Positions 5,877-47,686 of a stretch of 64,000 nt of DNA are shown one piece after another. The stretch comes from a virus. Taxonomy: Duplodnaviria; Caudoviricetes. How positions within the stretch are numbered: the stretch's first letter is position 1; each line of letters begins with the position of its first letter. The DNA lies in IMG/VR virus record IMGVR_UViG_3300006045_001036; one strand, 5' to 3'. The notes beneath the pieces are model-generated. The model saw nothing but the letters and a program-made list of their open reading frames with translations, did not search any database and was not told the DNA's origin. The position numbers and the translations under genes are program-made.

Positions 5877-5949
5877 ATAAATTCAACTGACTTAAAGTTT
5901 ATCGCTTCAAGTCAGTTGAGAATATGAAGGTCGTCCGTAATTGTTGAAT

Positions 5950-6219: not shown

Positions 6220-6227
6220 AATTCCTC

Positions 6228-11598: not shown

Positions 11599-12768
11599 TC
11601 AATCGAGATAATCAAGATTCAGAGAGTAGTAGTTAACCCGATTAAGTGTCTTCTTAATTATTAAATCAGGGGAAACAGACGACAATTCTTTCAACCTTTT
11701 TGATACGGTAGAGTCGCTGATTCCACAATCCTTTGCTATATCATATCGTGAAACTCCGTCGTCTGAAAACAATGTTGCTTGTAGCAACGTATAACACAAT
11801 TGATTGTCGCTGAAAAGATTCTCTATCCGCTCTGCATACGCTTTTAACTTAGACAATCGAGTTTCTAATGCCTCTATTAAATTCAATGTCGAGGTTTCAA
11901 CGATATCCAAGAACATACAGATAAACGGCGTCAAATCACCCTTGCTTTTTGCATCGTTACAAATTTCAAAAGACTTGTAGTATTTGTTAATGTTCTCTTT
12001 AATTGCATAAGACAGTCGATATCCTACAATGCTCTCCAGCTCGTTGGCAAGAATATAACTGCTGATAAATCGGCTCGTTCTTCCGTTACCGTCATAGAAT
12101 GGATGAATATATCCAAACAAATAATGAAATACTGCAATGCGAAATAAGATGTTAATGCTTTTGTTATCAAGAATTTCTATTGCCTTTGTCATGTATTCGC
12201 ATATCTTAGTTTCAGGCGAAACTCCTGTGTGGATTTCTTTGTCGGTGACTGTGTGAACGCTAACACTTTCTTTTCTGAAAATCTTTCCGTCAGGTTTATC
12301 GGTTACTTCGTCTCCGACAAGTTCATCATATACTTGCCGAACATCGTCACAAGATTCGAGAAATAACATCTCTTCTTCCATCATGTTATATCGGTTTACA
12401 AGACCTTGAAATCTTTGTTTCTTTTTCGGATTTTTCAAAACCTTGTCGATTTCTTTCCTTGTACTGCGAATACCCTCAATATTATTAGTAAGCATCACTT
12501 CATCGAACAAACACTTATTCAGATATTGTTTCAATGCCGATTCGGGGAGTTCTGCACGCAAAGAAGCTATTGTTTTGTCATTTTTTCGTATACGGTCAAC
12601 CTTTTCATATAGAGTAGGTTCACGCATGAAGAACGCTTCGTTTGTGCCGATGTTTACCCCTAACTTAACAGCATAATCGCTGTTGAATCTATCTTCATAT
12701 AATTGGCGATAGCGTTCAGTATCTTTGTAAAACAGCTTGTTTAACTGTTCATAAGACATAAATTTCAC
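11599..12768 (-). CDS. Fic-domain protein with C-terminal HTH
   Basis: Canonical HPFYDGNGRTSR motif; inhibitory TNNIEG motif; terminal HTH. Confidence 0.93.
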   Translation of the reverse strand: MKFMSYEQLNKLFYKDTERYRQLYEDRFNSDYAVKLGVNIGTNEAFFMREPTLYEKVDRIRKNDKTIASLRAELPESALKQYLNKCLFDEVMLTNNIEGIRSTRKEIDKVLKNPKKKQRFQGLVNRYNMMEEEMLFLESCDDVRQVYDELVGDEVTDKPDGKIFRKESVSVHTVTDKEIHTGVSPETKICEYMTKAIEILDNKSINILFRIAVFHYLFGYIHPFYDGNGRTSRFISSYILANELESIVGYRLSYAIKENINKYYKSFEICNDAKSKGDLTPFICMFLDIVETSTLNLIEALETRLSKLKAYAERIENLFSDNQLCYTLLQATLFSDDGVSRYDIAKDCGISDSTVSKRLKELSSVSPDLIIKKTLNRVNYYSLNLDYLD

Positions 12769-12847
12769 CTCTTTGGTTAAAAACGATATTTATTAGTTTG
12801 TTTTGTCGATTATTGCAATGTCTTTTGCAAAAACGCTTGTTTTTACT

Positions 12848-17187: not shown

Positions 17188-18627
17188 CTATTTTCTCGGT
17201 TTCTTCTTGGACACGAGTTTCATTTGATTTTCAGGTTTCTCAATAGGAACTGCTTCCGAGTTTTCAGCAACATCGTTTACTCCGAGCGGTTCTTGTAGCT
17301 CCATATCCGTATCTGTAATGGGTTTCCCTGTAATGTATTCCATCTGCTCACGAGTCAAAGCGTCTATAACACAACCGTTGTTTTCGAGTATTGACCGAGC
17401 GACCGCAGCATCCACTTGCTGAGGAACTTGTAGAATTCCCGCTATCCGAGCTTCAGGCGGTGCGTTCGGAGGTAATTGAGCTTTGAAATCATTCTTGGCA
17501 ATAAACTGAGCGGAAAGGGTTTGGAGAGTGAAAGACACGTCCATGATTTCGGCGGGGTGTCCGTCTCCCGAAGCCAAGTTCACTAACCGTCCGTCTGCCA
17601 GAATATCAATCCGCTTGTTTGTTCCATCGGCGTCCTCGATAACGTAACCGTGTACATTAGGACGAAGTTCATCGTGTTCAATACACATATCTTTAAGACC
17701 TGCGACATCAACCTCACAATCAAAATGACCTGCGTTACAACAGACTGCTCCGTGTTTCATAAGTATAAAGTGTTCGGGCGTAATAACGTCCTTGCACCCT
17801 GTTACCGTGATGAAGAAGTCACCGTACTTCGCTGCTTGGTTCATAGACATAACCGTAAAACCGTCCATCATTGCTTCAAGAGCGGGAAGGTGTTGAACCT
17901 CGGTCACAATAACTTGCATTCCGAGACCTTTAGCTCTCATAGCGACACCTTTACCGCAGTTGCCGTAACCAGCAACAACCGCCGTCTTACCCACAAGCGA
18001 TAAGTTTGTAGTCGCAGTAATCGCAGTCCACACCGACTGACCTGTTCCGTATCGGTTATCACAGAGATTTTTACACACGGCATCATTAACAGCGACCATA
18101 GGGAACATCAGTTTCTTTGCTTGTTGCAAAGCAATAAGCCGAGTTATTCCTGTGGTTGTTTCTTCGCAACCACCTTTGACATTTGCGGCGATTTCGGTAA
18201 AAGCTTCGTCATTGTGAAGAATATCGAGCAAATCCCCTCCATCGTCAATTACAATGTCGGGAGCGTGTTTTAAGACGGCTTTTAAGTCCTCGACATATTG
18301 TTCTCCAGAACAGTTGTGTGAGGCATAAACCGTCATTCCCTGAGCAACCAACGCTGCCGCAACATCATCTTGAGTTGACAAGGGGTTAGAGCCTGCAATG
18401 TACATATCCGCCCCGCCAGCTTTCAGGACTTCGCACAGTCGGGCAGTCTTGGCTTCAAGATGAATACAAAGGGCTATTTTCATCCCTTTGAACGACATAT
18501 CTTGCATTAAACCGACTTCGGTTTCTTTGAGTAAGGGCATATGCTCCCCAACCCACCGTATTTTCTTCGTCCCATCTTGGACGGCTTGAGCGTACTTCTC
18601 GTGGTCTTGACCGTAAGTGATTCTCAT
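17188..18627 (-). CDS. ahcY: S-adenosylhomocysteine hydrolase
   Basis: HMP, HLEAKTA, SNPLSTQDDVAAAL, DDGGDL, EETTTG, DNRYGTGQS, GYGNCGKG, GRLVNL..GDGHPAEIMD; ATG 18627 after AAGGAG. Confidence 0.97.
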   Translation of the reverse strand: MRITYGQDHEKYAQAVQDGTKKIRWVGEHMPLLKETEVGLMQDMSFKGMKIALCIHLEAKTARLCEVLKAGGADMYIAGSNPLSTQDDVAAALVAQGMTVYASHNCSGEQYVEDLKAVLKHAPDIVIDDGGDLLDILHNDEAFTEIAANVKGGCEETTTGITRLIALQQAKKLMFPMVAVNDAVCKNLCDNRYGTGQSVWTAITATTNLSLVGKTAVVAGYGNCGKGVAMRAKGLGMQVIVTEVQHLPALEAMMDGFTVMSMNQAAKYGDFFITVTGCKDVITPEHFILMKHGAVCCNAGHFDCEVDVAGLKDMCIEHDELRPNVHGYVIEDADGTNKRIDILADGRLVNLASGDGHPAEIMDVSFTLQTLSAQFIAKNDFKAQLPPNAPPEARIAGILQVPQQVDAAVARSILENNGCVIDALTREQMEYITGKPITDTDMELQEPLGVNDVAENSEAVPIEKPENQMKLVSKKKPRK

Positions 18628-20430: not shown

Positions 20431-22038
20431 ATGAAATTACCCGAAGAGTATTACCCCACGCCAACGGAGTTGGCGACAAAGATGCGAAGTAAGGTTGATA
20501 TGAAAACCGTAGCTTCCGTTCTCGAACCGTCTGCAGGTGACGGCGGTCTCATCGCAGTTTTTGCGAAATCACAGTATAATTTAGATTATTCCGCTGTTGA
20601 CGCAATCGAGATTGATGGCGACTTGCAAGCGATTCTGAAGAGTAAAGGAATTCGAGTTGTTTATAACGATTTTCTCACTTACCACTCTTACAAACAGTAT
20701 GACCTAATTGCAATGAACCCGCCGTTCTCCGAAGGAGATAAACACCTGCTTAAAGCTCTCGACATACAAAAGCACGGCGGTCAAATCGTCTGTTTACTTA
20801 ACGCTGAAACCCTACGTAACCCTTACACCAATACCCGCAAGGATTTGGTTAAGCAGTTGGAGAAATACGAAGCCGATATTGAGTATATCGAAGGAGCTTT
20901 TTCCACTGCTGACCGCTCTACCGATGTAGAAATCGCTCTTGTTTACGTCAATATCTCGAGTTCGTTTGATGATTGCGATATCTTGAAGAATTTAGAGAAA
21001 GCTCGGGAAGTCGCTTCGGAAACCGTTGAAGAAACACAACTGACAGACAGGCTTGAGAGTTATCTAAACGCTATCGTCAAACAATACGAAGCTGAAACTG
21101 CCGCAGGTGTCAGGCTAATTCGTGAGTATATGGCTTTTGCTCCACAGTGTTTGAATTCATTCGATGAGCAGTACACAAGCACTATCCTTGAGATGAAAAT
21201 TTACGATGGGAGTAGTGACCGCAGTCTTGTCAATGATTTCTTAGAGAAAGTTCGGTATAAATACTGGGCGGTGTTGTTTGGTCGTAAGGAGTTCTACGAG
21301 CTGATGACCGAGAACCAACGCAGTCAGTATTTTAAACGGTTATATGAGTTGGCTCACTACGAGTTCAACCTCTCAAACATCAAGCAAATACAGCTTGATT
21401 TGTCGAAAAGCAGTATTAAGAGTATCGAAGACACCATCCTCGACCTGTTTGACGACTTCGCCATCAAGTACACATGGTACAAGGAGTGCGACAATAACAT
21501 CCATTACTACAACGGTTGGGCGACAAACAAAGTAGGGAAAGTGAACAAGAAGGTAATTATTCGGTTGGATGCTTTCGAGCGTTACGACAAAACATTTGAA
21601 CCTCGATACACAACCAGAGGAAAAGTAACTGATATTGAGAAAGTCTTCAATTTCCTTGATTGTAACCATACTCCGCCGTTCGACAGTGTCGAAGATGTGT
21701 TAGATTACGCTACTCGGTGCGGTCAAACAGCGAAAATCGAGTTCAAGTACTTCTATATAACTTTCTACAAGAAAGGCACAGCACATATCACATTCAAAGA
21801 CATGGAGCTTATTAAACGGTTCAACATCTTTGTCGGGTTGCGAAAAAGCGGATTACCGCCGTCATACGGCAAGAAATCGTATTCCGATATGACGAATGCC
21901 GAGCAGCAAGTTGTCAACGAGTTTGACGGCGGAGAGAAAGAGTACACCAAGGTGTACAACAACCCAAGCAAGTACATTATTGAGTCCGAGAGTATGTTAA
22001 TGCTTGAGAGCAAAGAAGATTCGGGGGAGGTGTTGTAG
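20431..22038 (+). CDS. N6-adenine DNA methyltransferase (DUF4942-type)
   Basis: YYPTP, motif I LEPSAGDG, motif IV MNPPF, C-terminal FYKKGTAHITF. Confidence 0.88.
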   Translation: MKLPEEYYPTPTELATKMRSKVDMKTVASVLEPSAGDGGLIAVFAKSQYNLDYSAVDAIEIDGDLQAILKSKGIRVVYNDFLTYHSYKQYDLIAMNPPFSEGDKHLLKALDIQKHGGQIVCLLNAETLRNPYTNTRKDLVKQLEKYEADIEYIEGAFSTADRSTDVEIALVYVNISSSFDDCDILKNLEKAREVASETVEETQLTDRLESYLNAIVKQYEAETAAGVRLIREYMAFAPQCLNSFDEQYTSTILEMKIYDGSSDRSLVNDFLEKVRYKYWAVLFGRKEFYELMTENQRSQYFKRLYELAHYEFNLSNIKQIQLDLSKSSIKSIEDTILDLFDDFAIKYTWYKECDNNIHYYNGWATNKVGKVNKKVIIRLDAFERYDKTFEPRYTTRGKVTDIEKVFNFLDCNHTPPFDSVEDVLDYATRCGQTAKIEFKYFYITFYKKGTAHITFKDMELIKRFNIFVGLRKSGLPPSYGKKSYSDMTNAEQQVVNEFDGGEKEYTKVYNNPSKYIIESESMLMLESKEDSGEVL

Positions 22039-22040
22039 TC

Positions 22041-22997
22041 ATAGCACGTAATAGAGTTGTAATCAAACAAGGGCAGGAACACCGCCGTGAATTCGTAAAT
22101 CTGTTCAAGAAATTTGACAACGGCGGACACAGTGACTGGCGAGTATGGCAGGATTTTGTTTACATGGCGTCGTCGGCACTCGCCCAACCCGCCGACTTTC
22201 GGCAAAGCCGTGAAGACGAATATATGCAGATTATCAGCAGATATAACAAAGAAGAACAAGACAGATTCCCGAAAATGTTCTTAGAGATTGTCGAAGCGTT
22301 TGAGGAAGAGAAGTTCGCTGACATACTTGGCGACCTATATATGCAGTTGGATATGGGAAGTAAGTGGAGAGGTCAATTCTTCACCCCATATAATGTTTGC
22401 GTAATGATGGCGAAAATGTCAGCAACCAATGTTCAGGAAGAAATCGACAAAAGCGGTTATATGTCTGTGTGTGACCCTTGCTGCGGAGGCGGTGCAATGT
22501 TAATAGGTTTTGCTCAACACTGCATGGAGCAGAAAGTGAATTATCACAACAACGTACTGTTTGTCGGACAAGACATCGACCCAATTGTAGCAAGAATGTG
22601 TTATATTCAGATGTCGTTACTCGGCTGTCCCGGATACGTAGTAATCGGTAATTCGCTGACTCAGCCGATTGTCGGAAACCCTCTGTTTCCCCAAACAGAC
22701 AAAGTTAATCCTGATTTGCCTGATGCCGACATCTGGTATACTCCGTTCTGGTTTACCGAAGCATGGCATTACCGCCGAGCGTTGTATCAAGTCACATCTC
22801 TGGTGCAGTCTTGTGTTTCTTCTGAAAAACAAGACGAACCTACCCCACCTGTCGTACCACCAGTTGAACCGCTTTCTCCGCCAGCCAAAGGGATTTTGTT
22901 TGACGAAGAAACCAAGAAAGCGGCATTCCAGCAGATGAATTTGTTTGAGGATTCCGAAGACCTTGACCCTAATGACATTGACGAGTTGGACGGATAA
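22041..22997 (+). CDS. N-6 DNA methylase-like protein (probable ATA start)
   Basis: GQFFTPYNV and DPCCGGGAM motifs; frame open 41 codons upstream of the called ATG, to an ATA after GGGGGAGG. Confidence 0.8.
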   Translation: MARNRVVIKQGQEHRREFVNLFKKFDNGGHSDWRVWQDFVYMASSALAQPADFRQSREDEYMQIISRYNKEEQDRFPKMFLEIVEAFEEEKFADILGDLYMQLDMGSKWRGQFFTPYNVCVMMAKMSATNVQEEIDKSGYMSVCDPCCGGGAMLIGFAQHCMEQKVNYHNNVLFVGQDIDPIVARMCYIQMSLLGCPGYVVIGNSLTQPIVGNPLFPQTDKVNPDLPDADIWYTPFWFTEAWHYRRALYQVTSLVQSCVSSEKQDEPTPPVVPPVEPLSPPAKGILFDEETKKAAFQQMNLFEDSEDLDPNDIDELDG

Positions 22998-27399: not shown

Positions 27400-28485
27400 T
27401 TATGCCGCAATCTTAACAGGTCTTTCGTAGGTCTTCGCACTGGTGTTGTGGAGGATTCTCCACCCGAGCTGTTGCAGTTCAATGTTGCGGTCGTAATCCT
27501 TCGCCGTGTGTGCTGCTTTCGTAACAGCGTTCATTACCGAGTAAACGGAGGTCGGTCCCGCTACGTCAGATTCGTCAATGTGACTTGCGATGAGGTCAGC
27601 TTCTTTGTCGGTGAGAACGATTTCTTTGCGGAGGTTTGCAACAATCTGGATGGTCGGAGCATCAATAATTTGTTCCGCTTTCTCCTTGATTTGAGCCATA
27701 ATCTTCTCAATCTTATCTTGAGACAGGAGTTCGGCAACTTTCTCACGAATGACCTTAGGGCTAAGTCTGCGTTCTTCGGTCGCTACTTCGCAAGCGGGAA
27801 GGAGTTCGCCGAGTTCCTGTTTCTTGCCGATGTGGAAACGGCGGTAAACCCCGAGACCGTCCGAAGAGGCGGCAACCATGCCGTTAGAGCAAACAAGTCG
27901 GTATACGAAAGGCACAATGCGGAAAGACGAAAGCCCGACTTCACTGTTGTGGATTGACACGCCGAATTGGAGTTCGTCGCCGACTGTTACGGATTCGGTG
28001 AGTTTCTCCGACACAAAGCTCATTTGGAGATAGTCATCGGTAATATTCGCCGACTTCATTGTAAGCCCGAAGTCGCCGAGCTTGGAATCCTCGATTGCTT
28101 CAATGACTTCCATGTTGTCAAGTCTTTCGTAGCTGTTTGACAGGAAGGCACGAGCGATAGGATTGCCGTCTTTGTCTGTCGTATAGCGTATCATTCTCGG
28201 AGTGTCGGGGATTTCTTTCGAGATGTCGCTGATGGTGTTCATGAGGGTTGTTGAGCCGAGACCGAGCTTCTCAAGCTTTGAAGCAAACCCGCAGGGGATG
28301 CCGTGGTGAGCAAGGATTTGTCTGTATGCGTTGTCTGAAACCCGCTCTTTACCCCCGCCGAGTGCCGTGCCTAAAACGTAGTCGGCGATGTATTCACGGT
28401 TGTTGACGATAACGTCTTTGCAAGTCTTAGCGTAGTCAGTTGCTTTCGCTTTGAGGTCAGCGTATTTGTCCAATGCAATAATCAT
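27400..28485 (-). CDS. DUF932-like protein
   Basis: RAFLSNSYERLDN, NSEVGLSS, RLVCSNGM motifs. Confidence 0.8.
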   Translation of the reverse strand: MIIALDKYADLKAKATDYAKTCKDVIVNNREYIADYVLGTALGGGKERVSDNAYRQILAHHGIPCGFASKLEKLGLGSTTLMNTISDISKEIPDTPRMIRYTTDKDGNPIARAFLSNSYERLDNMEVIEAIEDSKLGDFGLTMKSANITDDYLQMSFVSEKLTESVTVGDELQFGVSIHNSEVGLSSFRIVPFVYRLVCSNGMVAASSDGLGVYRRFHIGKKQELGELLPACEVATEERRLSPKVIREKVAELLSQDKIEKIMAQIKEKAEQIIDAPTIQIVANLRKEIVLTDKEADLIASHIDESDVAGPTSVYSVMNAVTKAAHTAKDYDRNIELQQLGWRILHNTSAKTYERPVKIAA

Positions 28486-33546: not shown

Positions 33547-33617
33547 TTCGCACTCTCTTTCTCGGCGAATCGCCGTACAACTTTCTCGTTCACAAGAAGT
33601 AATGCTAACTATGAAAC

Positions 33618-33652
33618 GCACTACCGCCAGTCGGCGGTACTGGCGGTAGTGC
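33618..33652. terminator. Hairpin ending the nucleotide operon
   Basis: Perfect 14 bp inverted repeat GCACTACCGCCAGT/ACTGGCGGTAGTGC. Confidence 0.7.
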
Positions 33653-33684
33653 AAAAATATAAATAGAGGATGGTGACATAGCTG

Positions 33685-34707
33685 TTAAGAGTTTACTGTC
33701 GGCGGATTCTGTACAATCCACAGAATATTACGAACCTTCGGCGAAGTGACTGTTGTAAACGGAGCCGCAAGGTGCATGGCAGGGTTTGACGGATAATTAG
33801 CGAATATTTGGTTGATGTATGGGAGATTGAAGTGTTCCTGAGCCAGAGCGGAAAACTCTGCAGGATTGTAGAGGTCGTAGATGTTTGGAATTTTCTTCGC
33901 AAGCTGGTCGAGAAATCCTTTCATAACTGCTTTGCTCGGAGCTTTAACATCCTCAGTTTTTAATTGTGACTTAGAAGCACGGATAGGGAACGCTTGAACC
34001 TTCGCAAATCTCGCTTGTAATCTGCTCTTCAACTCTTCAAACCGCCATTCACGAGTATGGTCTTCCGCTTTACCGTACCGTTCGGAGAAATTCGGTGTCG
34101 AAAGAATACAATAGTCTGACATATAGCGGAAGAAGTCAAGGGCTTCATCGAGGGATTTGAATTCATCGGTCTCGCCGTTAAACAGGTATGGGAGATGTTC
34201 AAGAGCTTCGAGAGATATGAGAGCGTCGTATCGCCGTCCTCCCCGCTCGGCAATAAGTCTGTCGGCGGTCTCTCTCCAGTTAGCCCCACAGAAAGACCCA
34301 GGGACAATCTTAGCCCTGCCCTTATCCACTTGCGACTTAATTCTGTCAGAGACCTCCGCACAAACTTTCTCATCATATTCCAAATTGGTATAATGACCTA
34401 AATACATACCCCGACGTTCAGTGTTAAGTGATTCCCACATAAACGCAGAACCGCCACCGCAGTCGATTACCTCAACTCTCGGGTGAGCAATACCCTCAAC
34501 CCCTTTATTATCCATGCGGGATTTATCGTGTGCTTTGCGGAATGTTGTTACCGAGCCGTCGGCAAGATACAGAGGGGCATCAATAGCTTTCTCTGCTGCA
34601 AACGCATAGCGGAGTTCGTGAGCGATGGTGTCCCAGTGTCCTGGGTCGTGGTGGAGTTGCGAGGAAGAGACCCCGCTCTTGTCATAAATAGCTTTGTTTT
34701 TAGGCAT
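33685..34707 (-). CDS. Class I SAM-dependent methyltransferase
   Basis: AHELRYAFA, VIDCGGG (motif I), YDALISLEALEHL, LSTPN, HTREW. Confidence 0.8.
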   Translation of the reverse strand: MPKNKAIYDKSGVSSSQLHHDPGHWDTIAHELRYAFAAEKAIDAPLYLADGSVTTFRKAHDKSRMDNKGVEGIAHPRVEVIDCGGGSAFMWESLNTERRGMYLGHYTNLEYDEKVCAEVSDRIKSQVDKGRAKIVPGSFCGANWRETADRLIAERGGRRYDALISLEALEHLPYLFNGETDEFKSLDEALDFFRYMSDYCILSTPNFSERYGKAEDHTREWRFEELKSRLQARFAKVQAFPIRASKSQLKTEDVKAPSKAVMKGFLDQLAKKIPNIYDLYNPAEFSALAQEHFNLPYINQIFANYPSNPAMHLAAPFTTVTSPKVRNILWIVQNPPTVNS

Positions 34708-35878
34708 AGTTGTTATATCCTTTCGGGTTTAATATAAGCAAGTCGGGAAACCTTGCAATTGCTTTATCAAGCAAATCTTGATTATCGTCTACGAAGGCAA
34801 CACCTTTTCCTGTTTGGTGTTTTTCTCCAAACTCTTCAATTATTGAGCAGAGTACAGGAAACTTTTCGGATTGGTTTTTTGCCCCAACATAGTCTTTAAA
34901 ACTGAACCCTAACTCAGAAAGGCGGGAAGGTTTTGTTTTCATGTGGTTATTGTAAGGGTTCTCGGTCTCCGCACCGCCTGTAAGAAAAGTAATGTTCCTT
35001 AGGAATCTTGCTAATTCTCCGAAAGGAGTAAGCGGGACATCTGAGTAAAAGTCGTCAGAATTATATATGCTGTATATATCAGATTCTTTTTCCTTTCCGC
35101 ATTTAAGGTAATCGGTCAGTAACCAAGTATCTCTCATACGGATGTCGTTTATGTCGGTCGAAAAATCACCACGAGTTAAACCGTCTTTCGCCCATTGAAA
35201 CCTGTCAACGATTTTCTGGACCCATACAGGAATGATTTCAAGCACGGTTTCATCTACGTCGAAAATAATCTTTTCAAATATTCTATCGGGGTATTCATCA
35301 CATGAGAGTATCTGTTGTGCTGTAAGTATTGGTTTTTGAGTAAACATGACCTCATAACCATTACGCCCATTATCACTGAGACCGAGGTACGCTTGGTAGT
35401 ATTTCTCGCAGTCTTTGTCTAATTGCTCATAGGTACAGCGAATATTGTTTGTTCCGCTCTCACGATTTTGAATTCTGTCCCAGCACTCCCAAGCCTCGGT
35501 TTTCATAAACACGTAAAACGGCTTGATAAATTTACTGTAATCGTAATCCTTAGAGGTTTTGCGGTAACAGAGTTCGCTTGCGAGCCAACGGTCAAATATT
35601 ACGAAAATTCCTTCGTCAATTAGCATTTGTGCTTTCTGGTTCGCTTCGGCAAGGTTTTCGTAAATAAGGTCGGACAGCTCAGTTTCTTCGGTTTCTGAAA
35701 GCTCTTGTTGAGCAAGGAGCTTCTTGATTTTCTCTCCGCTCTTGGACAGATAATTGGGAGTTTTAACGATTGCGACAGGGATGTTGAACGCTAATAACAG
35801 TTGTTCTAACCCTTCGACAAGCGTAGATTTCCCGGAACCATTAACGCCTTCAACCGCTATCGGTGTATGTTTTTTCAT
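34700..35878 (-). CDS. dTMP kinase fused to HAD-family 5'(3')-deoxyribonucleotidase-like domain
   Basis: EGVNGSGKST P-loop and FDRW..S..Y; C-terminal FDVDETV, FLT and FVDD HAD motifs. Confidence 0.85.
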   Translation of the reverse strand: MKKHTPIAVEGVNGSGKSTLVEGLEQLLLAFNIPVAIVKTPNYLSKSGEKIKKLLAQQELSETEETELSDLIYENLAEANQKAQMLIDEGIFVIFDRWLASELCYRKTSKDYDYSKFIKPFYVFMKTEAWECWDRIQNRESGTNNIRCTYEQLDKDCEKYYQAYLGLSDNGRNGYEVMFTQKPILTAQQILSCDEYPDRIFEKIIFDVDETVLEIIPVWVQKIVDRFQWAKDGLTRGDFSTDINDIRMRDTWLLTDYLKCGKEKESDIYSIYNSDDFYSDVPLTPFGELARFLRNITFLTGGAETENPYNNHMKTKPSRLSELGFSFKDYVGAKNQSEKFPVLCSIIEEFGEKHQTGKGVAFVDDNQDLLDKAIARFPDLLILNPKGYNNYA

Positions 35879-35892
35879 AAGTAATTCCTTTC

Positions 35893-36783
35893 TTATTCCC
35901 AGCGATTAAGATAACTGGATACTGCGATTGTAGCCTCAGGAGTGATAACACGGTCGATATCGTTTTCGAGAAGGAGTTTCTTGCACATCTCACAAGGTTC
36001 GGATTTTCGAGGCTTACCCTCGGTGTCAAGAGACCAAAGATATACGTATGCACCTTTAAGGTCAACAGGGTGTTTGTTTGTAGTGGCGTGAAGATATCGA
36101 AGAGCGTCATAAATTGCTGTTGGCTCGGCATGAACACATCGACAAGCGTCATAGTACCGTGCTTCAGTTCCTTCTCCAAGAGCGTCCCGCCGACAAGTTT
36201 TTCCTTCCGCATTACAAGCAACGTATCCTTTCGGCACACGATTTTGACCTCTGCCGATGATTTTTCCGTCTTTGACAATAATTGCACCGTGTTTTGTTTT
36301 TCGGCAAGTAGAGTCTTGAGCAGCGTCCCAAACATCTTTGGCAAAGTCATGGAAAGCGGTATTGATAACCGTCTCCAAAGCGTTTTCGAAGTTGATGGTA
36401 TTTGGCTTTTTCATTCGGGATTTCATCCTTTCAATATAATCATCTGATAAACGACCAAATTTAAGAAGCTTTTGCTCGTTCTTGTCGTTAACTCGTTTGA
36501 TTGCTTCAAGGTATGCGGTAGAGTCGTTTTTACCGATAGAACGCAGCATCGTCGCCATTGTAAAGATTACATCTCCTGCTTCGTCTATTAAGTCGTCAAT
36601 CGCTTTTTCGTTCGTGGTTCTGCAGGTTTCTTCCTTGACCTGAGTGCGTTGGTACTTCATTAAGCTGGCAAGATACTCCGCTGTCTCTTCCACCACGATA
36701 TCTATTGATAAATAGTGTTTAGGGTCGGGGTTAAACGCTGTAGCCAGCTCGTAGGTACGCTGTAATTCTTGTTCTATGTTCAT
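35893..36783 (-). CDS. MazG-like NTP pyrophosphatase fused to dCMP deaminase
   Basis: EETAEY...DEAGDV...KN (all-alpha NTP-PPase); STC...GAII, VHAE and PCEMC zinc deaminase motifs. Confidence 0.87.
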   Translation of the reverse strand: MNIEQELQRTYELATAFNPDPKHYLSIDIVVEETAEYLASLMKYQRTQVKEETCRTTNEKAIDDLIDEAGDVIFTMATMLRSIGKNDSTAYLEAIKRVNDKNEQKLLKFGRLSDDYIERMKSRMKKPNTINFENALETVINTAFHDFAKDVWDAAQDSTCRKTKHGAIIVKDGKIIGRGQNRVPKGYVACNAEGKTCRRDALGEGTEARYYDACRCVHAEPTAIYDALRYLHATTNKHPVDLKGAYVYLWSLDTEGKPRKSEPCEMCKKLLLENDIDRVITPEATIAVSSYLNRWE

Positions 36784-36843
36784 TATTAAATTCCTCCGAT
36801 TATTTGGTTATTTAAGAAATGCAAAAACGGCAGTTTTCACAAT

Positions 36844-38241
36844 TCAGATGTTGCGTAATACGTGACTCATGTCGGATTTTGATAATCCGACGGCTGTCAT
36901 CAAGTCTTTAATTTTGAATTTGGGGTCGGCTTTAAGAGATTCAAGACCTACCGACACTGCGAGGGGAAGGTGTCTGATGTACTCGTCAACTTCAAGTTGT
37001 CGGACAAAGATTTCACCGTTCACGTCTTCAACGTCTGGTTCCACTTCGTTGTCGTTTTTGTCGGTCTGTTTATCGCTGTCTGTTCCTTTGTAATACTCTG
37101 TCTCGTTACGCAGAAAGTGTATGACCTGAGACACAATTACCTTGTGAGCGAATGTCGAAAATTGAAAGCCTTTCCTCGGTGCAAAGTTAGCTACTGCTTT
37201 CCACAATCCGAACTCGGCAGCTTGTTTTGTCTCTTCGAGAATTGCCGCATCCTTGATTTCGTGAAATTCCTTGCTCTTACGCAGGTACATATGTGCCAGT
37301 TGCCAAGCTAATTGACGATACTGCTCGAAAAGAGCGAGTTCTTCCTCTCGGGATAATTTTGCAGGCATTTCAACGATTGAGATTAGAGAATTGCTGTCTT
37401 TGGCAACAACAGTTCGGGGAAGATGAAGACGTACAGATATTTCGTCTTGAAGGTCTTCGTTGCTCTCGTTAGCGAGTTCTCGTTCGATTAGGTTGTGAGC
37501 AATTTCAGGAACTGAGCGAAGTCGTTTATCAGTGGCGGTTAAGAAATGGGGGATTCGGATTTCGTCGAATAATTTTTCCAGAGGGCGGTCTCCGTAGTAT
37601 CGAGCATAAAGGCGGGTAATTTCAGAATTAAGTAGCAGATACGCTCTGACTTGCCGCTTTTCTTCTGCGAAACACAGCTTAGTGCAACCTTCAAACGGAC
37701 TATAATGAGCAGTTATATACCCTAATCCCTGTTCATCGAATCTATGTTGTACGTAAATCTCAAATCCCTTATTGACAAACCACGAGGAAATAGGTTTTTT
37801 CGTCTTCAAATTTTGCCAAAAATCCGCACTGGCTTCGTTCCAACATTCGAAACGGTCGGCGTCCATCTTGGAATTAGTGAGAAATAAATCAAGTTTCTCA
37901 ACCAATAACGGTAATCCTTTTTCATCGGTAACGAGTTCCCCCGCCATTTTGCGAATAGGTTTGTTATCTTCCATTTCGTGACTTAACACAAACATTGCGG
38001 TAGGTTCTTCGTCCGCAAAATTCCATGTAAATCCTTTGACACAACTATGTTGGAGAATCGCAACACGTGTGTCTTCATATGCGGAATCGAATAAAGCATT
38101 TAATGAACAGACTAATAAAATTCTGTTGTTCGGGTCGTCGAAGCAGTGGAAAGCTTTACGAGATTTTGCGTTTAGTTTCACCATTGAAGTACAATCGTAC
38201 TTCTCGGAAACTAATTCAATTGCTTTTTGAGTTAATCTCAT
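36844..38241 (-). CDS. Phage sigma-70 family factor with long N-terminal extension
   Basis: Region 2 GLWKAVANFAPRKGFQFSTFAHKVI; terminal HTH IKDLMTAVGLSKSDMSHVL. Confidence 0.75.
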   Translation of the reverse strand: MRLTQKAIELVSEKYDCTSMVKLNAKSRKAFHCFDDPNNRILLVCSLNALFDSAYEDTRVAILQHSCVKGFTWNFADEEPTAMFVLSHEMEDNKPIRKMAGELVTDEKGLPLLVEKLDLFLTNSKMDADRFECWNEASADFWQNLKTKKPISSWFVNKGFEIYVQHRFDEQGLGYITAHYSPFEGCTKLCFAEEKRQVRAYLLLNSEITRLYARYYGDRPLEKLFDEIRIPHFLTATDKRLRSVPEIAHNLIERELANESNEDLQDEISVRLHLPRTVVAKDSNSLISIVEMPAKLSREEELALFEQYRQLAWQLAHMYLRKSKEFHEIKDAAILEETKQAAEFGLWKAVANFAPRKGFQFSTFAHKVIVSQVIHFLRNETEYYKGTDSDKQTDKNDNEVEPDVEDVNGEIFVRQLEVDEYIRHLPLAVSVGLESLKADPKFKIKDLMTAVGLSKSDMSHVLRNI

Positions 38242-41059: not shown

Positions 41060-42598
41060 TTAGTAAGAACCAGCGATAGAACCTTTGACCATAGTCATCG
41101 GGTTCACTGTGTTGATTGCGTATGCACCGACGTAACCTTGTTCAACGTCCATGTTCGCACGTTCGAGTCTTTGAGTTGCGGCAATCGGCAAGAAACAGCC
41201 GACCATCATCGAAGCTTTAAGTTTGTCGTTACCTTTGAAGAGCTGTACAAAGTCGTTTGCACCGAGGTTCGGGTCAACGTACACTTTGTAAGCACCGAGC
41301 GAACCTGCGTAGCAAGCTCCGCTGATGTCTTCGGAAATCGTTTCTTCTTGGAATTTCGCCATGTTCTGGAATACACCGAGAACATTTGTGCCGCAGCAGA
41401 TACGGTTTGTTCCCCATTGACGGGTTACTTGACGTACTGCCAAAGAACCTTTATCGAGAACGGTTTTGAAGTTGTTAAAGTAACTAAACTCTCCACCGCC
41501 GTCAACGCTGTTGAATTTACCCGAAGAATTCCACGTCAAGCCTTTCATAGCTGAAGCGTCTCTCCACGCTTGAAGAACAGCGCGGCTGTTGATTTCTGCC
41601 ATTATTTCGCCCATCATCTGAGTTTTTTCAACGTCAGAAAGTTCAGCACCGTATTCCATCTTAGCAGCGTAGTTAGCGAGGTAAGAGCTGTGTGCTTCAA
41701 TTGCGTAAGCTTCTGCTCTGAGTAAGATTCTGTCGAGCTGTAAGTAGGCTTTAACGATATTCGCACCGTAAGTGCCGTCTTCGTGAGCACCGACATTTTC
41801 GTTGTCAAAACGGTAGTTGGCATAAATAGTCAAACCGTCAGAACCGTCCGTCATCGTGATAACACCACGTTCGTAGTCGATTTGTCCCCATTCAGTTGCA
41901 TTCGGGTTGCCGTTCGGGTAGAGATTACCCGCAGCGTCGTCTTTGACTGCGATGGTAGTTCCGTTTGCCTCGTTACGAACTTGGAGTTCAACGTGTCCCG
42001 GAATAATCGCACCACGACCTTCGATACCGAGATAAACAACGTCTCCGGACTCGTCGGGAGTTCTCGCCAATTCCTTCGTCACGAAACTTGAAGCCCAAGT
42101 CGGGTCAGAACCAGACTGAGAGCCGTAAGGCGTGTGCAAAATTTTCTTAGCAGGGGTAGCACCACGTCCTGTTTCGGTAACAACCTTGAAGAAAGGATGC
42201 AAGCTTTCACGACTGTCCATCTCTTGGAAAGAAGCGATTTGGTCAAGGATAGAGTTAGCGACACCAAGAGGAATCAACTCTTTGAATTTCGGAGCAACAG
42301 CAATATTAGTTGTGTTGGTAGCCGATTGAATCCTTGTACCTGCTGCAACAGGAATACGAAGCAATGCAGGGTTTTCTACGCAAGCGGCATCATGAATATC
42401 CATCATTCTTGCGGAGGTGATTGCTTGAGAGTCTCTCAACGCCTTCTGACCACTGGCTTTCAGTGCTATATTCGCTGAAGACAGTATCTTAGCATGACGT
42501 TTGACCGCAGCTTGGTCGGCGGACTGTATCTTGGTCATACCAGCTTTTTGACCTTTGTGTAAGGGCTTCTGTGAAGTCCCACTGTTAATAATAACCAT
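41060..42598 (-). CDS. Major capsid protein (T4 gp23-like)
   Basis: QEM, insertion DDAAGNL..GQIDYERG, EIMAEINSR, AGSLGAYKVYVDPNL; follows the protease gene. Confidence 0.9.
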   Translation of the reverse strand: MVIINSGTSQKPLHKGQKAGMTKIQSADQAAVKRHAKILSSANIALKASGQKALRDSQAITSARMMDIHDAACVENPALLRIPVAAGTRIQSATNTTNIAVAPKFKELIPLGVANSILDQIASFQEMDSRESLHPFFKVVTETGRGATPAKKILHTPYGSQSGSDPTWASSFVTKELARTPDESGDVVYLGIEGRGAIIPGHVELQVRNEANGTTIAVKDDAAGNLYPNGNPNATEWGQIDYERGVITMTDGSDGLTIYANYRFDNENVGAHEDGTYGANIVKAYLQLDRILLRAEAYAIEAHSSYLANYAAKMEYGAELSDVEKTQMMGEIMAEINSRAVLQAWRDASAMKGLTWNSSGKFNSVDGGGEFSYFNNFKTVLDKGSLAVRQVTRQWGTNRICCGTNVLGVFQNMAKFQEETISEDISGACYAGSLGAYKVYVDPNLGANDFVQLFKGNDKLKASMMVGCFLPIAATQRLERANMDVEQGYVGAYAINTVNPMTMVKGSIAGSY

Positions 42599-42628: not shown

Positions 42629-44167
42629 TTAGCCTTTGAAGTTGGTGTAATACTCTTCATCGGTTTCATCAATTTCTTTCACAGCTTGTGGTTGGATAAC
42701 CATGCTCGGAACGACAGCACTGTTAATTTTCGTAATAGAGGCTTGTCGTCTTTGCTGTGTAGAAGCTGTGTCTACGGCAGAACGAATTTGAGCGGGGGTC
42801 GCTGAACTTTCGATTTTGACGCTCGCTACATCGACACCGTAAGCATCTCCGAGAAGTTGCAAATAAGCTTTTTTGAATTCGTCGCTTGTTTGCGGTTGTG
42901 TCTTCGCAGTCCTCGGGGTTGTCCTTGTAGATGACGAAGACTGAATACGTTGGGATTGTTTGCTTTGACGTTTTATTTCGCCTTGAGCCGTCAACAGGTT
43001 TTGACGTGTCTCATTTAATTCAGTGGTTACGGTCTCAAGACGACTCGACAGGTTTCGATTGTCTCGAGCAGACGCCGCTATTTTTGTTCTCGACTTCTGT
43101 TGTGTCTCTTGTAACTCTTGAATTTGTTTGATTAATTCTTCATTCTGAGCCAGAAGTTCAGCGTTGTACGCAGCCACTTCATCAATCTCGGCTTCAGACT
43201 TACGTCGGAATTTATCAAAAACCCCGCTATCGACATTTGCCTGTCTATTTGCACGTAACGCAGTTCGGAGTTCTGATGTTAACTTTACATTCTGTGAACT
43301 AAGTTGTTCTACTTCGGAATTAAGTGCTGCTATTTGTGCTTCTGCGTTCGCTGTTTGATTAGCGGAAGAAGTAATTCGCCGTTGCAATCTTTCATTCTCT
43401 TGTCGTGAAGACCTGAGTTGAGTTGTCTTCCGAGCCAGTGCAGCACTCACTGCCGTTAATCTATCGTCGTCAATTGTGGAGTTTTCAACAATTGTTTGTG
43501 CCGCAGACTCAATTCTTACCTCTGCTAATCGTGTGTCAATTAAGTCGTTGATTAATTTACTGTTAGGGAGTTTGCGGAGTGCGGTAAGAGCTGCCGAGCT
43601 TTCTATCTTCGGTATTTCAGTTTTTGCACTTGCTAACAGTCTGCGGTAGTTCGGATTTTCCGAACTTGCTATTGCTACGATATCGGGAATAGCGTTAGGG
43701 AACGCAGGAAATTGAACAACGTCAAAACCGTTGCATATGAATGTTTCGGGGTCAACCTCTCCAATTGGTTCGCCTGTAGGAGTATCACCCCACCCACGTT
43801 CAGATACACCGAAGCGGGTTCCGCCTTTACAGTAATTGGCTATTAACCGCCCTGTCGGGCAATCAATTATGTCGAACTGAGCCCAGACTTCGCCGTCATC
43901 TAATACCTTAGCATCGTTCAACCGTCCACAGGAATTGGCGGGGTTCGGCTCATCTTCTTCTGGATGTCCAAACCACATTAAGTGACATTTCCGTTTAAGA
44001 CCGTCAATAAACCGTTCAGACCTAAAAGCATTTAACCAAGCACCTTTAGCGAGATAAACACCATTCACGTTATCGACATCGGAATCACCTGAGGTTCCTT
44101 CAATACGCATAACCACTCCGGGCGGTAAATTATCGGTAATTGTCTTAAATTCCGCTCTCTTGCTCAT
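42629..44167 (-). CDS. Prohead protease (T4 gp21-like) fused to scaffold coiled coil
   Basis: NVNGVY, GHPE, PTGR, GVSERGWG, FDVVQFPAFPNA; long C-terminal coiled coil. Confidence 0.88.
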   Translation of the reverse strand: MSKRAEFKTITDNLPPGVVMRIEGTSGDSDVDNVNGVYLAKGAWLNAFRSERFIDGLKRKCHLMWFGHPEEDEPNPANSCGRLNDAKVLDDGEVWAQFDIIDCPTGRLIANYCKGGTRFGVSERGWGDTPTGEPIGEVDPETFICNGFDVVQFPAFPNAIPDIVAIASSENPNYRRLLASAKTEIPKIESSAALTALRKLPNSKLINDLIDTRLAEVRIESAAQTIVENSTIDDDRLTAVSAALARKTTQLRSSRQENERLQRRITSSANQTANAEAQIAALNSEVEQLSSQNVKLTSELRTALRANRQANVDSGVFDKFRRKSEAEIDEVAAYNAELLAQNEELIKQIQELQETQQKSRTKIAASARDNRNLSSRLETVTTELNETRQNLLTAQGEIKRQSKQSQRIQSSSSTRTTPRTAKTQPQTSDEFKKAYLQLLGDAYGVDVASVKIESSATPAQIRSAVDTASTQQRRQASITKINSAVVPSMVIQPQAVKEIDETDEEYYTNFKG

Positions 44168-44504: not shown

Positions 44505-46097
44505 CTACATCTCTCCGCCTTCACCGCTCTTTACCTCGACTGTCTTCATAGACGCCATCTGAGCAGTGAAGATAGGCAATATGCGTTCGGTTATTTCTTT
44601 AACAGCTTTAACTCTTTCGTCATGCTCTCCGATACCCAGTTTGTCGCACAAATCAAGTAACGCTTTGGCGTTTTCGATTGCCTGTTGTACCTTGTCTATG
44701 AGGAACGTATCAAGCAACGACAGTGGAGCATTCATGCAGAGTTCGTACTTGCCGATATAATCCTTGTACCCATTTCGTTCCAACATCAAATCAATACCAC
44801 GAGTAATTCCTGTCAGGTATGCCACTTGACCTCGTTGTACACGGCGGTTGAATCTGGACGACATTTGTGTCAGCGTTGTTCCCGAAGCACCAAGACCGCC
44901 CTCCCCACTGTAGTTCATCTGTTGTTTGGGGATAGCAAGAGCAGCAAGTTTCTTGTTAAGGTTGTACTCTACGTCAGCTATATCACGAACATTGACATCG
45001 CCTCCGAGCGTTTTGACATCAATCACACCTTTACCATCACGAGTAAGCGAGTATATTGTGTTTTCAAGAGACTGTGGATTTGCAGTACTCTCAGCAGTAC
45101 CGAGCGTTGTAGACAGAGTCATGTCTTGCTCCATCTTGTTTTTCAACGCCATGAGAGCTTTTTGAGCAGCGTCTTTACGCATGGTTTTGACTTCGAGGGA
45201 CACAAGACGTATAACAAGACTTTTCGTCAGTTTGTTAAGGAGCAGCGAGTCTTGCATCAAGTTGTCTATAACAGTCGGTGTGTATGCTGCCTCAAGAGGC
45301 GGCACATCGACCTCGACACCGTATTCGATTTCGTTGCCGTCTTGGTCTTTGAGATACACCGATAATCCCGAGCTAAGTGATTTCAATTGAACATGAAGGT
45401 AACTTGCTGGCGGGTATTTGTTAGCCACACCTTTGTTTGTCGAGTGTAAAAACAGCATAGAACCGAGCTGAGAGCTTTCGACTTGAGAGCGTTTATCAGG
45501 TCCCAGTGAATAGAAACAAGCGGTTTCTCCTGTTTCTTTGAAGGTCAGCTCTACCACACTGTTTTGAAGTTTGATGTCTCGTGTATTCCATGAGAAGTAT
45601 TTTGTTCGCTCTCCACGGTTATCAAGTCGAACCAACCCGCCGACGCTCATGCGGTCACGAAACACCTCCGTCGATGGAAAACAAAATCCTCCGTGAGTAA
45701 ATAAGACTCTCATATGCCCCCAGCCATATTCTTGAAGGCGTAATTCATAATCAACGATATCTTGAATATGCTTCTGAATAATTTCGTTATCAGATGAAGC
45801 CCATACAATCTGACCTTTCTCGTTAGGAGATGTAGACTCGTCCGCATACATATCAAGAGCCGTGGAAACGTCAGGGTCGGACGCCATTTGCTCAATAGCG
45901 AGATAACGAGATGTGAAATTGCTCATCAGAGCTGACAGAGGCTGAAACCCTGCTAAACTGGCGATACTGCCGTTAAGTAAGTCTTCAGGGACACTCGAAC
46001 TCTCAGGCTTCCCGTATTTTTGTTCCCTCATATTACGGCGATTTTCAGCCGACCGTCTGTACCAATCACCTATATTACTTAAGATAGGAATTTTCAT
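44505..46097 (-). CDS. Portal protein (T4 gp20-like)
   Basis: MASDPDVSTALDMYADE, TLGG...DIADVEY...KL.AL.IPK, RFNRRVQRGQ. Confidence 0.88.
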   Translation of the reverse strand: MKIPILSNIGDWYRRSAENRRNMREQKYGKPESSSVPEDLLNGSIASLAGFQPLSALMSNFTSRYLAIEQMASDPDVSTALDMYADESTSPNEKGQIVWASSDNEIIQKHIQDIVDYELRLQEYGWGHMRVLFTHGGFCFPSTEVFRDRMSVGGLVRLDNRGERTKYFSWNTRDIKLQNSVVELTFKETGETACFYSLGPDKRSQVESSQLGSMLFLHSTNKGVANKYPPASYLHVQLKSLSSGLSVYLKDQDGNEIEYGVEVDVPPLEAAYTPTVIDNLMQDSLLLNKLTKSLVIRLVSLEVKTMRKDAAQKALMALKNKMEQDMTLSTTLGTAESTANPQSLENTIYSLTRDGKGVIDVKTLGGDVNVRDIADVEYNLNKKLAALAIPKQQMNYSGEGGLGASGTTLTQMSSRFNRRVQRGQVAYLTGITRGIDLMLERNGYKDYIGKYELCMNAPLSLLDTFLIDKVQQAIENAKALLDLCDKLGIGEHDERVKAVKEITERILPIFTAQMASMKTVEVKSGEGGEM

Positions 46098-47686
46098 AAC
46101 AATACTCCGTTATCTGCCAAAAACTTGTCTTCTGATACCATAGGGATTTTGAACGCTTTCGCTTTTCTCATCTCAGAGCCTATTTGCCCCGACATCAAAC
46201 CGCCGACAACAAAAACTTTCGTTTGTTCTGTCACGTTTTCGTGAATTACTCCGCCGTGGTCGGTGATTAAAGCTTTTACCTTTTCAGGTTTGCCGCAACG
46301 GAAGTTTCCTGAAAGATACACCGACACACCAACAAGCGTATGAGGTTTTTCTTCCTTGTTTTTTACTACGTCGGTAACTTCGATAAGCTCTGATAAAGTT
46401 TTCCACTCGGCAATATTCTCGGGTGTAATCGCCCAGTTGACAAAAGCGTTTTGTGCCGCAGACGAAAGACCCGCAGAATTGTGGAAAGCTCTTGGCTTAT
46501 TAATGAGATAATCGTTGAATATTTTTACACTTCCCCTGCTTGCGTCTACAATTGTGTTTACATCACTGTTGGATAATCCGGGGATTTCCAAACTCCATAA
46601 GAGCTTGAGAAGAGACACCTCAAGTTTCTCGGGGAAATTACGAACATATTCTTTTAACCAAGCAGGGGTGAAATTGTTTATACTCGTTTCTTGACCGAGC
46701 TTGATAGCATCGGATAACGATTTCACTTTGTTTTTCGCAGTCATGCCGAGAATAGTTTCCGAAGTAAACGCTATTCCTAACTGGGTAAGAAAAACGTCAA
46801 GACGTTGGTATAGCTGCGATGTGCAGTTGTAATTACCGCATATCGTTGCTCCGTGACCGACTGTCAGTTTGTCACCACACAGAGGGCATTCTCTTTTCAG
46901 AGGCTCGGCGGGAGAGCCAACAGTACGAACAACATTGTCAAGTGTATCTACGATAAACATTTGGTTGACACCGAGGTTATTACGCAGAATATACGAATAG
47001 CTCTTAGTCAGCACAACATCTTTAGTCGAAGTAATCAACTTGCCTATGAGCTGTCCGTTCGCTTTATAATCCAGTTCGATTTTCTGTATACGAAGCAAAC
47101 GGTAAGGGATTCGAGAAGTTAAGAATTGCTCTTTTCCTGTATTGGATTGCATTACGGTTGTAATCCGACCAGGGTATTGAGATAATTCTTTCGATATACC
47201 GAACTCGGCTATAGTAGCGTTGTAATACTCAAACACACCTTGTTGTTCGGTGGTATCGTTACAAGTAACGAATGACAGGGTTTTGAACCCCATTAAGTTA
47301 AGCAGTTCAATGTGGTCGGTTTGTCGGTTTAATATTGTTGGACACATCAAGAACTTGTGCGGGAAGAATACCCGAGACACGTCTTCTTGCAAGCTCATTG
47401 TCTGAGCTTGCTCGTTCATGTCGCCGAATCCGATATGCGACTTCGGTGTGAGTACCCCCAGCACTTTTGAAGTCCCGCCAGTCAACCCGATTGCATGAGG
47501 GATATTTTCAATCGTATCAAGATTGATAATCTTTTCGCCGTATTTTTCGTGGTTCTGTTCTCCTACAGTTACTCCGATAAGCAACCCTTCTTCAGAATAC
47601 TCGGCAACAACGTCTATGCCGAAAGGGTGATAGTAAGCGGTCATTCCTGTACGGAACACCATTTTCTTTACAGGTGTTTTAGTCAT
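46094..47686 (-). CDS. Degenerate NAD-dependent DNA ligase homologue (Zn finger, HhH and BRCT retained)
   Basis: CPLC..C..C Zn finger, LEIPGL HhH, C-terminal BRCT; KxDG site appears replaced by HPFG. Confidence 0.75.
   Translation of the reverse strand: MTKTPVKKMVFRTGMTAYYHPFGIDVVAEYSEEGLLIGVTVGEQNHEKYGEKIINLDTIENIPHAIGLTGGTSKVLGVLTPKSHIGFGDMNEQAQTMSLQEDVSRVFFPHKFLMCPTILNRQTDHIELLNLMGFKTLSFVTCNDTTEQQGVFEYYNATIAEFGISKELSQYPGRITTVMQSNTGKEQFLTSRIPYRLLRIQKIELDYKANGQLIGKLITSTKDVVLTKSYSYILRNNLGVNQMFIVDTLDNVVRTVGSPAEPLKRECPLCGDKLTVGHGATICGNYNCTSQLYQRLDVFLTQLGIAFTSETILGMTAKNKVKSLSDAIKLGQETSINNFTPAWLKEYVRNFPEKLEVSLLKLLWSLEIPGLSNSDVNTIVDASRGSVKIFNDYLINKPRAFHNSAGLSSAAQNAFVNWAITPENIAEWKTLSELIEVTDVVKNKEEKPHTLVGVSVYLSGNFRCGKPEKVKALITDHGGVIHENVTEQTKVFVVGGLMSGQIGSEMRKAKAFKIPMVSEDKFLADNGVLL

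Follow-up and report, generated by a model that had tools for sequence, protein, structure and literature searches.

Which reaction would a phage carry out with a predicted S-adenosylmethionine (SAM)-dependent methyltransferase that sits in a nucleotide-metabolism operon where a thymidylate synthase might be expected? The question is raised by three minus-strand genes in a 64,000-nucleotide stretch of viral DNA (IMG/VR record IMGVR_UViG_3300006045_001036), the whole of which we call the window. The three open reading frames (ORFs) encode a MazG-like pyrophosphohydrolase fused to a deaminase (P0001, 296 aa, 35893-36783), a thymidylate-kinase (Tmk)-like protein fused to a HAD phosphatase (P0002, 392 aa, 34700-35878) and the methyltransferase (P0003, 340 aa, 33685-34707). 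A preliminary description of this locus had proposed that the methyltransferase acts on a nucleotide, giving either a folate-independent SAM route to dTMP or a methylated non-canonical nucleotide. We found support for a role in nucleotide or DNA-base metabolism in the linkage of this methyltransferase family to nucleotide enzymes, which is independent of gene order, and the SAM route to dTMP was not supported. The reading that we favour, and to which we assign an even chance, is that the three genes form a co-expressed unit that remodels the pyrimidine deoxynucleotide pool, and that P0003 tailors a modified pyrimidine, which would yield a methylated non-canonical base.

The genes are tightly packed, with a gap of 14 nt between P0001 and P0002 and an overlap of 8 nt between P0002 and P0003. 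This packing and the domain architecture first described for the three genes were borne out by ORF calls, Pfam, structure matches and the gene order in L003, a 12.8-kb relative contig from a different sample that served as the comparison locus. The predicted domains, in the direction of transcription, are as follows.

36379-36783, minus strand: P0001 N-terminal part (residues 1-135), candidate MazG-like all-alpha NTP pyrophosphohydrolase, from matches to Pfam MazG and PHROG 671, both weak.
35935-36345, minus strand: P0001 C-terminal part (residues 147-283), predicted dCMP deaminase, from Pfam dCMP_cyt_deam_1 and PHROG 174 (E 3.4e-20).
35327-35878, minus strand: P0002 N-terminal part (residues 1-184), predicted thymidylate-kinase-family dNMP kinase, from Pfam Thymidylate_kin and TIGR00041.
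34703-35296, minus strand: P0002 C-terminal part (residues 195-392), predicted HAD phosphatase of the NT5C 5'(3')-deoxyribonucleotidase type, from a DxDxT motif and an Atlas structure.
33685-34707, minus strand: P0003, predicted class I SAM methyltransferase, diverged AXL3-gp31-like (Methyltransf_23-type, HEN1/UbiG-like), from hhalign, AlphaFold2 and fold searches.

The sequence of P0003 had no match in Pfam, PHROGs, NCBIfam or PDB sequences. Language-model features (0.96) and an Atlas structure (template-modelling (TM) score 0.55) led to Methyltransf_11/12/23 proteins, and an AlphaFold2 model built on the family alignment reached a predicted local distance difference test score (pLDDT) of 88 and a predicted TM score (pTM) of 0.87. 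Fold searches returned class I methyltransferases only, with 176-217 residues aligned at Z 15-17 and a Foldseek probability of 1.00. Coq5, ChlM, UbiG and cap N7 enzymes were tied in that Z range, and the highest identity among the fold matches (19-20%) was to HEN1 and bacterial Hen1. Motif I (D82-C-G-G-G86) and the acidic E110 are kept in the P0003 clade. On this modelling, P0003 is a predicted class I (Rossmann-fold) SAM-dependent methyltransferase.

An exhaustive HMMER search with three close sequences yielded one bridging protein, P0007 (E 1.8e-5), a Methyltransf_23 member with 271 word-search relatives. In hhalign, the P0003 clade aligned with this family over its full length (98.8%, E 5.7e-17, 238 columns), at only 20-25% identity and with two insertions. 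Twelve residues were invariant in the 70 aligned sequences (D82, E167, E170, H171, S203, T204, P205, H217, E220, P316, R326 and N327), and a near-invariant N-terminal H-x-D...H..R helix and a C-terminal P...RN..W motif were common to P0003 and the family. By profile alignment, P0003 is a diverged member of a phage-only family typified by gp31 of Stenotrophomonas phage AXL3. One homologue, from an uncultured member of the Caudoviricetes (GenBank MW202621.1, 17766-18503), is labelled 'capping protein'; the label echoes the cap-N7 fold likeness and comes without evidence.

A PDB profile search placed Arabidopsis HEN1 at the top (9.6e-10), followed by UbiG (4e-9), bacterial Hen1 and human HENMT1; HEN1 and UbiG are metal-assisted O-methyltransferases. 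The P0003 residues E167-x-x-E170-H171 and S203-T204-P205-N206 align with the EhhEH motif IV and the STPN motif VI of HEN1 (residues 710-840); Tkaczuk et al. described an EhhEH motif IV together with motif VI as the signature of HEN1 and its small-molecule parent branch (PMC1397878). The family alignment contained no conserved cysteine outside motif I, and C83, C116 and C140 of the P0003 clade were not kept family-wide. Every known SAM-dependent C5-pyrimidine methyltransferase relies on a cysteine thiolate (PMC8989533), so the absence of a conserved catalytic cysteine argues against C5 methylation of dUMP. The median isoelectric point of the family (6.2, near-neutral to acidic) fits a small-molecule substrate. 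The motifs, the missing cysteine and the isoelectric point together point to methylation of a hydroxyl group on a small substrate, not of C5 of dUMP.

Scanning IMG/VR with the family alignment recovered at least 420 relatives; we retained 80 loci for ORF calling, clustering and counting of neighbours. The commonest neighbours in these loci encoded ThyA-family proteins, a PRA-PH/MazG-like pyrophosphatase (~131 aa) and a Tmk-like kinase (~330 aa), followed by PolA, a DnaB-like helicase, dUTPase, dCMP deaminase and DUF932 proteins. Of the PRA-PH/MazG-like and Tmk-like neighbours, 89% lay no more than 1 kb from the methyltransferase gene, and at least one such nucleotide gene was present in 52 of the 53 loci flanked by 3 kb or more on each side. 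The order of genes in the module varied between lineages. Comparison by hhalign of P0001 and P0002 with the partner genes of the main family gave no convincing orthology beyond the P-loop. These shuffled orders and non-orthologous partners favour functional linkage over inherited synteny alone.

In AXL3 the module runs from the methyltransferase (gp31) through an NTP pyrophosphohydrolase (gp30), a Tmk-like protein (gp29) and an Asp-type ThyA homologue (gp28) to a dCMP deaminase (gp27), and the phage also encodes a separate ThyX (gp50). Of 37 restriction enzymes, only two cut AXL3 DNA, each at a site made up of A and T alone, and the DNA resisted all the G/C-site enzymes tested; the modification behind this resistance was not identified by the authors (PMC7504290). 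In the literature we found no later study of AXL3 DNA chemistry or of the methyltransferase, and the MetaGPA paper is silent on the family.

The preliminary description had predicted that the family would be anti-correlated with thyA and thyX and would co-occur with ahcY. The opposite was seen for thyA: a ThyA-family gene was present in 42 of 43 whole viral records (≥20 kb) bearing the family, and in all 16 of those at least 90% complete. ThyX occurred in a single one of the 43 records, and the expected AdoHcyase (AhcY) in none of them, nor in any of the 80 loci. In the thymidylate-synthase (TS) fold, Asn specifies uracil and Asp specifies cytosine, as in TS and T4 dCMP hydroxymethylase, respectively. 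All full-length ThyA homologues of the family records carried Asp at the position equivalent to TS Asn177. For a representative, the closest match by far was the CMP 5-hydroxymethylase MilA (3e-23; top thymidylate synthase, 2e-15), and both the Asp and the catalytic Cys lined up in that alignment. The partner ThyA homologues are predicted to be cytosine-specific enzymes of the MilA/dCMP-hydroxymethylase type.

Several further features of these neighbourhoods were recorded. In 19 loci, a small ORF of 80-115 aa grouped with the ThyA homologues on clustering and lay close to a full-length ThyA-like gene, mostly right after it (L009, 2319-3499; L012, L013, L035 and L049) and sometimes before it; a split, a frameshift or a duplication of the C-terminal part may have produced this ORF. 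DUF932 genes were near the methyltransferase in 20 of the 80 loci with a median gap of ~140 bp, directly upstream in loci of the L029/L033 type. In the window a DUF932 gene (27400-28485, minus strand) lies 5 kb from the P0003 operon; the distance is 0.7 kb in L003 (11615-12682), and L005 has such a gene as well (5338-6273). The Tmk-like kinase of the main family may bear a UDG-fold C-terminal part (Pfam UDG; L005, 2932-3921) at the place where P0002 has the NT5C-type HAD domain, and L006 carries a separate UDG-family gene near the module (12284-12775).

The domain assignments for P0001 and P0002 differ in strength. The N-terminal part of P0001 matched Pfam MazG at E 1.1e-3 (19.6 bits, below the cut-off of 22), PHROG 671 (NTP-PPase) at E 3.4e-4 and the PDB NTP-PPase 5ie9 weakly (E 0.7); the EExxE and ExxD metal motifs are present by eye. 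The deaminase half scored well above threshold (E 5.5e-15, 55.5 bits, cut-off 25), with readable HAE and PCxxC zinc motifs. Residues 9-184 of P0002 matched Thymidylate_kin at E 1.9e-14 (54.2 bits, cut-off 27) and contain the P-loop and DRW motifs; the match to the NCBIfam equivalog TIGR00041 (E 8.9e-14) reached 51.6 bits against a cut-off of 83.25, a score too low to assign orthology or substrate. The C-terminal part of P0002 had no significant match in Pfam or PDB sequences. The best matches of its Atlas model were NT5C clusters (TM 0.63-0.74; clusters 90-100% PF06941), which include viral kinase-NT5C and dUTPase_2-NT5C fusions.

The operon is flanked by three further features.

36844-38241, minus strand: upstream, co-directional gene for a predicted sigma-70 region-2 protein (Pfam Sigma70_r2, E 7.2e-9).
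36784-36843, minus strand: intergenic leader of 60 nt with a GGAGG ribosome-binding site and a promoter-like word at 36809-36824.
33617-33653, minus strand: 15-bp GC-rich hairpin, 31 nt past the P0003 stop (-29.9 kcal/mol, z -6.7, equalled in 0 of 200 shuffles).

The closing hairpin given in the preliminary description is thus real. Its U tail is weak, and the terminator scan did not call it because a T run is lacking; it is terminator-like or RNA-stabilising. The promoter motif given there fared less well: the word exists, as a single copy in the window, and we found neither enrichment in the window nor a call by a sigma-70-type scan. Gene order in L003 is the same as in the window (sigma-like, MazG-like, deaminase, Tmk-HAD, methyltransferase), with identities of 49-61%, and the sigma gene has a 49% identical orthologue in the same place. 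The MazG-like protein (126 aa, 60% identical) and the deaminase (166 aa, 54% identical) are separate genes in L003 and fused in P0001; because both halves stand alone there, we consider the P0001 fusion to be real.

In the favoured reading, P0001 would hydrolyse one of the canonical pyrimidine deoxynucleoside triphosphates, with dCTP the simplest choice, to its monophosphate and would deaminate dCMP to dUMP, and P0002 would phosphorylate one pyrimidine deoxynucleoside monophosphate and dephosphorylate the unwanted one. A partner ThyA homologue may supply a 5-hydroxymethyl or 5-hydroxy group, both of which are plausible O-methyltransferase acceptors; the MilA-like ThyA homologues of RB69 and DLP3 make 5-hydroxy-dCMP, besides the known 5-hydroxymethyl-dCMP (PMC13326640). 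The most likely methyl acceptor of P0003 would be a pyrimidine nucleotide that already bears a modification (the hydroxyl group of a 5-hydroxymethyl- or 5-hydroxy-pyrimidine is one example) or this same base after its incorporation into DNA.

A number of observations weigh against this reading. Small phages cluster all their replication and nucleotide genes, so that the linkage may partly be module-level synteny. At 18 of 43 near-invariant positions the P0003 clade has residues other than those of the consensus (among them R25W, N216D and GTF241-243PIR), although its catalytic core is kept. Genes of the DNA methyltransferase type, N6_Mtase and DUF4942, are also present in the window. Finally, a ThyA partner was not seen. 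Translation of the window in six frames gave no match to a profile of 58 phage ThyA homologues or to a ThyX query, in agreement with the absence of thyA and thyX reported earlier; no called gene carried a ThyA or ThyX Pfam label in about 84 kb of the contig's 219.5 kb (gene labels covered the stretch from ~6 kb ahead of the window to ~10 kb beyond it); and L003 contains no ThyA-family gene in its 12.8 kb. Either the ThyA partner is encoded in another part of the 219.5-kb genome, or the P0003 clade has shifted its substrate. Because many pocket positions have changed and no ThyA homologue is within reach, P0003 may not use exactly the substrate of the main family.

Among the alternatives, the one that survives best, and that we still regard as unlikely, is that P0003 acts on an unrelated substrate (a metabolite, a protein or a host factor) and sits with the nucleotide genes through the clustering of enzyme genes in phages. 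The generic fold matches, with Coq5, ChlM, UbiG and many other small-molecule enzymes tied at the same Z, are compatible with such a substrate, and module-level synteny in 40-kb phages inflates co-occurrence. However, the linkage outlasts both the shuffling of gene order and the replacement of partners by non-orthologous ones, from 40-kb phages to a 220-kb T4-like phage, and the tight spacing of the pyrophosphatase and kinase neighbours, 89% of them within 1 kb, also weighs against this reading.

A second alternative, of fairly low probability in our estimate, is that the AXL3-gp31-like family, with P0003 among its members, would write an undescribed methylated DNA base (for example 5-methoxymethyl- or 5-methoxy-cytosine) through O-methylation of what a cytosine-type ThyA homologue produces, and that the P0003 clade of T4-like jumbo phages would be independent of any ThyA homologue and methylate a canonical pyrimidine nucleotide before replication. 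Taken for the P0003 clade by itself, direct methylation of a canonical nucleotide (an exocyclic N or O of dCMP or dUMP), with the simple methylated base incorporated in replication, seems doubtful to us. It would account for the lack of a ThyA homologue within reach in both the window phage and L003, for the diverged pocket positions and for the translational coupling of the methyltransferase to the kinase gene through the 8-nt overlap. But the clade has kept the HEN1/UbiG-like Glu-Glu-His-His set, which suggests O-methylation of a hydroxyl, the ThyA-family negative covers about one third of the genome, and a reaction of this kind is without known precedent.

We consider it similarly improbable that P0003 is a Hen1-like RNA-end enzyme that 2'-O-methylates a 3'-terminal ribose, for example of a repaired tRNA, with P0002 healing the ends in the manner of T4 Pnkp. 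The PDB profile search ranks HEN1, bacterial Hen1 and HENMT1 near the top, the highest fold identity is found in this group, the EhhEH and STPN motifs are common to HEN1 and the family, and the kinase-HAD phosphatase layout of P0002 is that of T4 Pnkp; translation genes (bS21, IF-1-like) lie just outside the window, and one GenBank homologue bears the capping label. Against this, UbiG scores almost equal to HEN1 and has the same motif IV with STLN in place of STPN in motif VI, and NCBIfam searches at E up to 1 gave no Hen1 family for P0003, P0005, P0006 or P0007, with UbiG the best family for P0006 and P0007. The P0002 kinase is of the Tmk family (54 bits; AAA_33/Pnkp type, E 1.5e-3), and its HAD domain best matches NT5C deoxyribonucleotidases. 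Unlike Hen1, P0003 has no lid or RNA-binding domain, no ligase gene is adjacent, and its context is deoxynucleotide metabolism, with ThyA-like, dUTPase, dCMP deaminase and NTP-PPase genes as the neighbours of the family.

The preliminary description had also taken AhcY as a sign of a stoichiometric demand for SAM. The AhcY gene of the window (17188-18627, minus strand) lies beside an SNF2-family helicase gene and 2-4 kb from the DUF4942 and N6_Mtase genes (20431-22038 and 22164-22997, both plus strand). This proximity to DNA methyltransferase-type genes offers a simpler reason for a phage S-adenosylhomocysteine hydrolase than nucleotide methylation, and with AhcY in none of the 43 family records, reading it as such a sign is not supported. 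SAM-dependent C5 methylation of dUMP as a folate-independent route to dTMP, which would replace ThyA/ThyX and explain AhcY by its SAM demand, is very improbable: the operon could supply dUMP (MazG plus deaminase) and a Tmk-family kinase, AhcY is present and ThyA/ThyX are absent from the window and its flanks up to about 10 kb, but a ThyA-family gene accompanies the family in nearly all records and AXL3 has ThyX too, the cysteine needed by known C5-pyrimidine enzymes is not conserved, motif IV is the EhhEH of small-molecule-branch O-methyltransferases and not Pro-Cys, the nearest solved relatives are O-methyltransferases of the HEN1/UbiG type, and AhcY does not travel with the family; besides, the ThyA of the host serves many phages. 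We therefore rejected P0003 as a stand-in for thymidylate synthase on the ThyA co-occurrence, the missing conserved cysteine and the O-methyltransferase motifs.

The window belongs to a metagenomic contig of 219,530 bp; homologues of Portal_T4, Gp23 and T4 gp13 are among the genes called on this contig. On its gene content, the source is best described as a deeply diverged, large T4-like phage of roughly 220 kb. No similar sequence was found in GenBank phages, either at the DNA level or by tblastn with P0003 and P0002, and scans of IMG/VR and metagenomes with P0003, a three-sequence P0003 alignment or the capsid protein returned no relative. Proteins encoded in the 6 kb or less before the window start include a bS21 homologue, an IF-1-like protein (eIF-1a Pfam), a zinc-ribbon protein and a cellulase-family protein. 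Within the window, a 386-aa Fic-domain protein (11599-12768, minus strand) is encoded between the genes for a DnaB-like helicase and an 866-aa protein. Two neighbouring 512-aa genes on the minus strand (42629-44167 and 41060-42598) encode a protease/scaffold-like protein and a Gp23-type capsid protein, and a 530-aa protein with a weak BRCT match (46094-47686, minus strand) adjoins the portal gene.

Whether restriction, CRISPR and type IV defence succeed against a phage depends on the hypermodification of its DNA, and such modifications also serve as tools for sequencing and synthetic biology. The known tailoring of pyrimidines comprises glycosylation, amino-acid or polyamine transfer, carbamoylation and acetylation; to our knowledge, SAM-dependent methyl tailoring of pyrimidines has not been described so far. 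The family, present on at least 420 viral contigs, is widespread, and a cultured carrier with unexplained restriction-resistant DNA, AXL3, makes the hypothesis directly testable. The window shows that a very different, large T4-like phage has also taken up this enzyme, together with fused partners and without a visible ThyA homologue, and this variant either extends the range of the pathway or points to a changed substrate.

Among known systems, the pre-replicative cytosine replacement of T4 (gp56 dCTPase/dUTPase, gp42 dCMP hydroxymethylase, gp1 dNMP kinase and Cd dCMP deaminase) has in common with the source phage the classes of dCMP deaminase and dNMP kinase and, through the candidate MazG-like domain, probably that of all-alpha NTP pyrophosphatase, as well as the T4-like virion background (Portal_T4, Gp23, gp13). 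Unlike in T4, there is no gp42/ThyA-family enzyme in the 84 kb of the source contig examined, the enzymes are fused in pairs, an NT5C domain is added, and a SAM methyltransferase without a T4 counterpart is translationally coupled to them. The 5-hydroxycytosine pathway of RB69 and DLP3 resembles the family modules in its pre-replicative core of MilA-like ThyA homologue, Tmk-like kinase and dCTPase; tailoring there is by glycosyltransferases, with no methyltransferase described (PMC13326640). AXL3 differs in having the Asp-type ThyA homologue inside the module and ThyX besides, neither of which was seen in the stretch of the source phage examined. In gp27-gp31 of AXL3, and in PW916, a homologous methyltransferase has as neighbours an NTP-PPase, a Tmk-like kinase and a dCMP deaminase; here P0003 stands beside the same kinds of enzyme, with the MazG-like part of P0001 as the candidate NTP-PPase.

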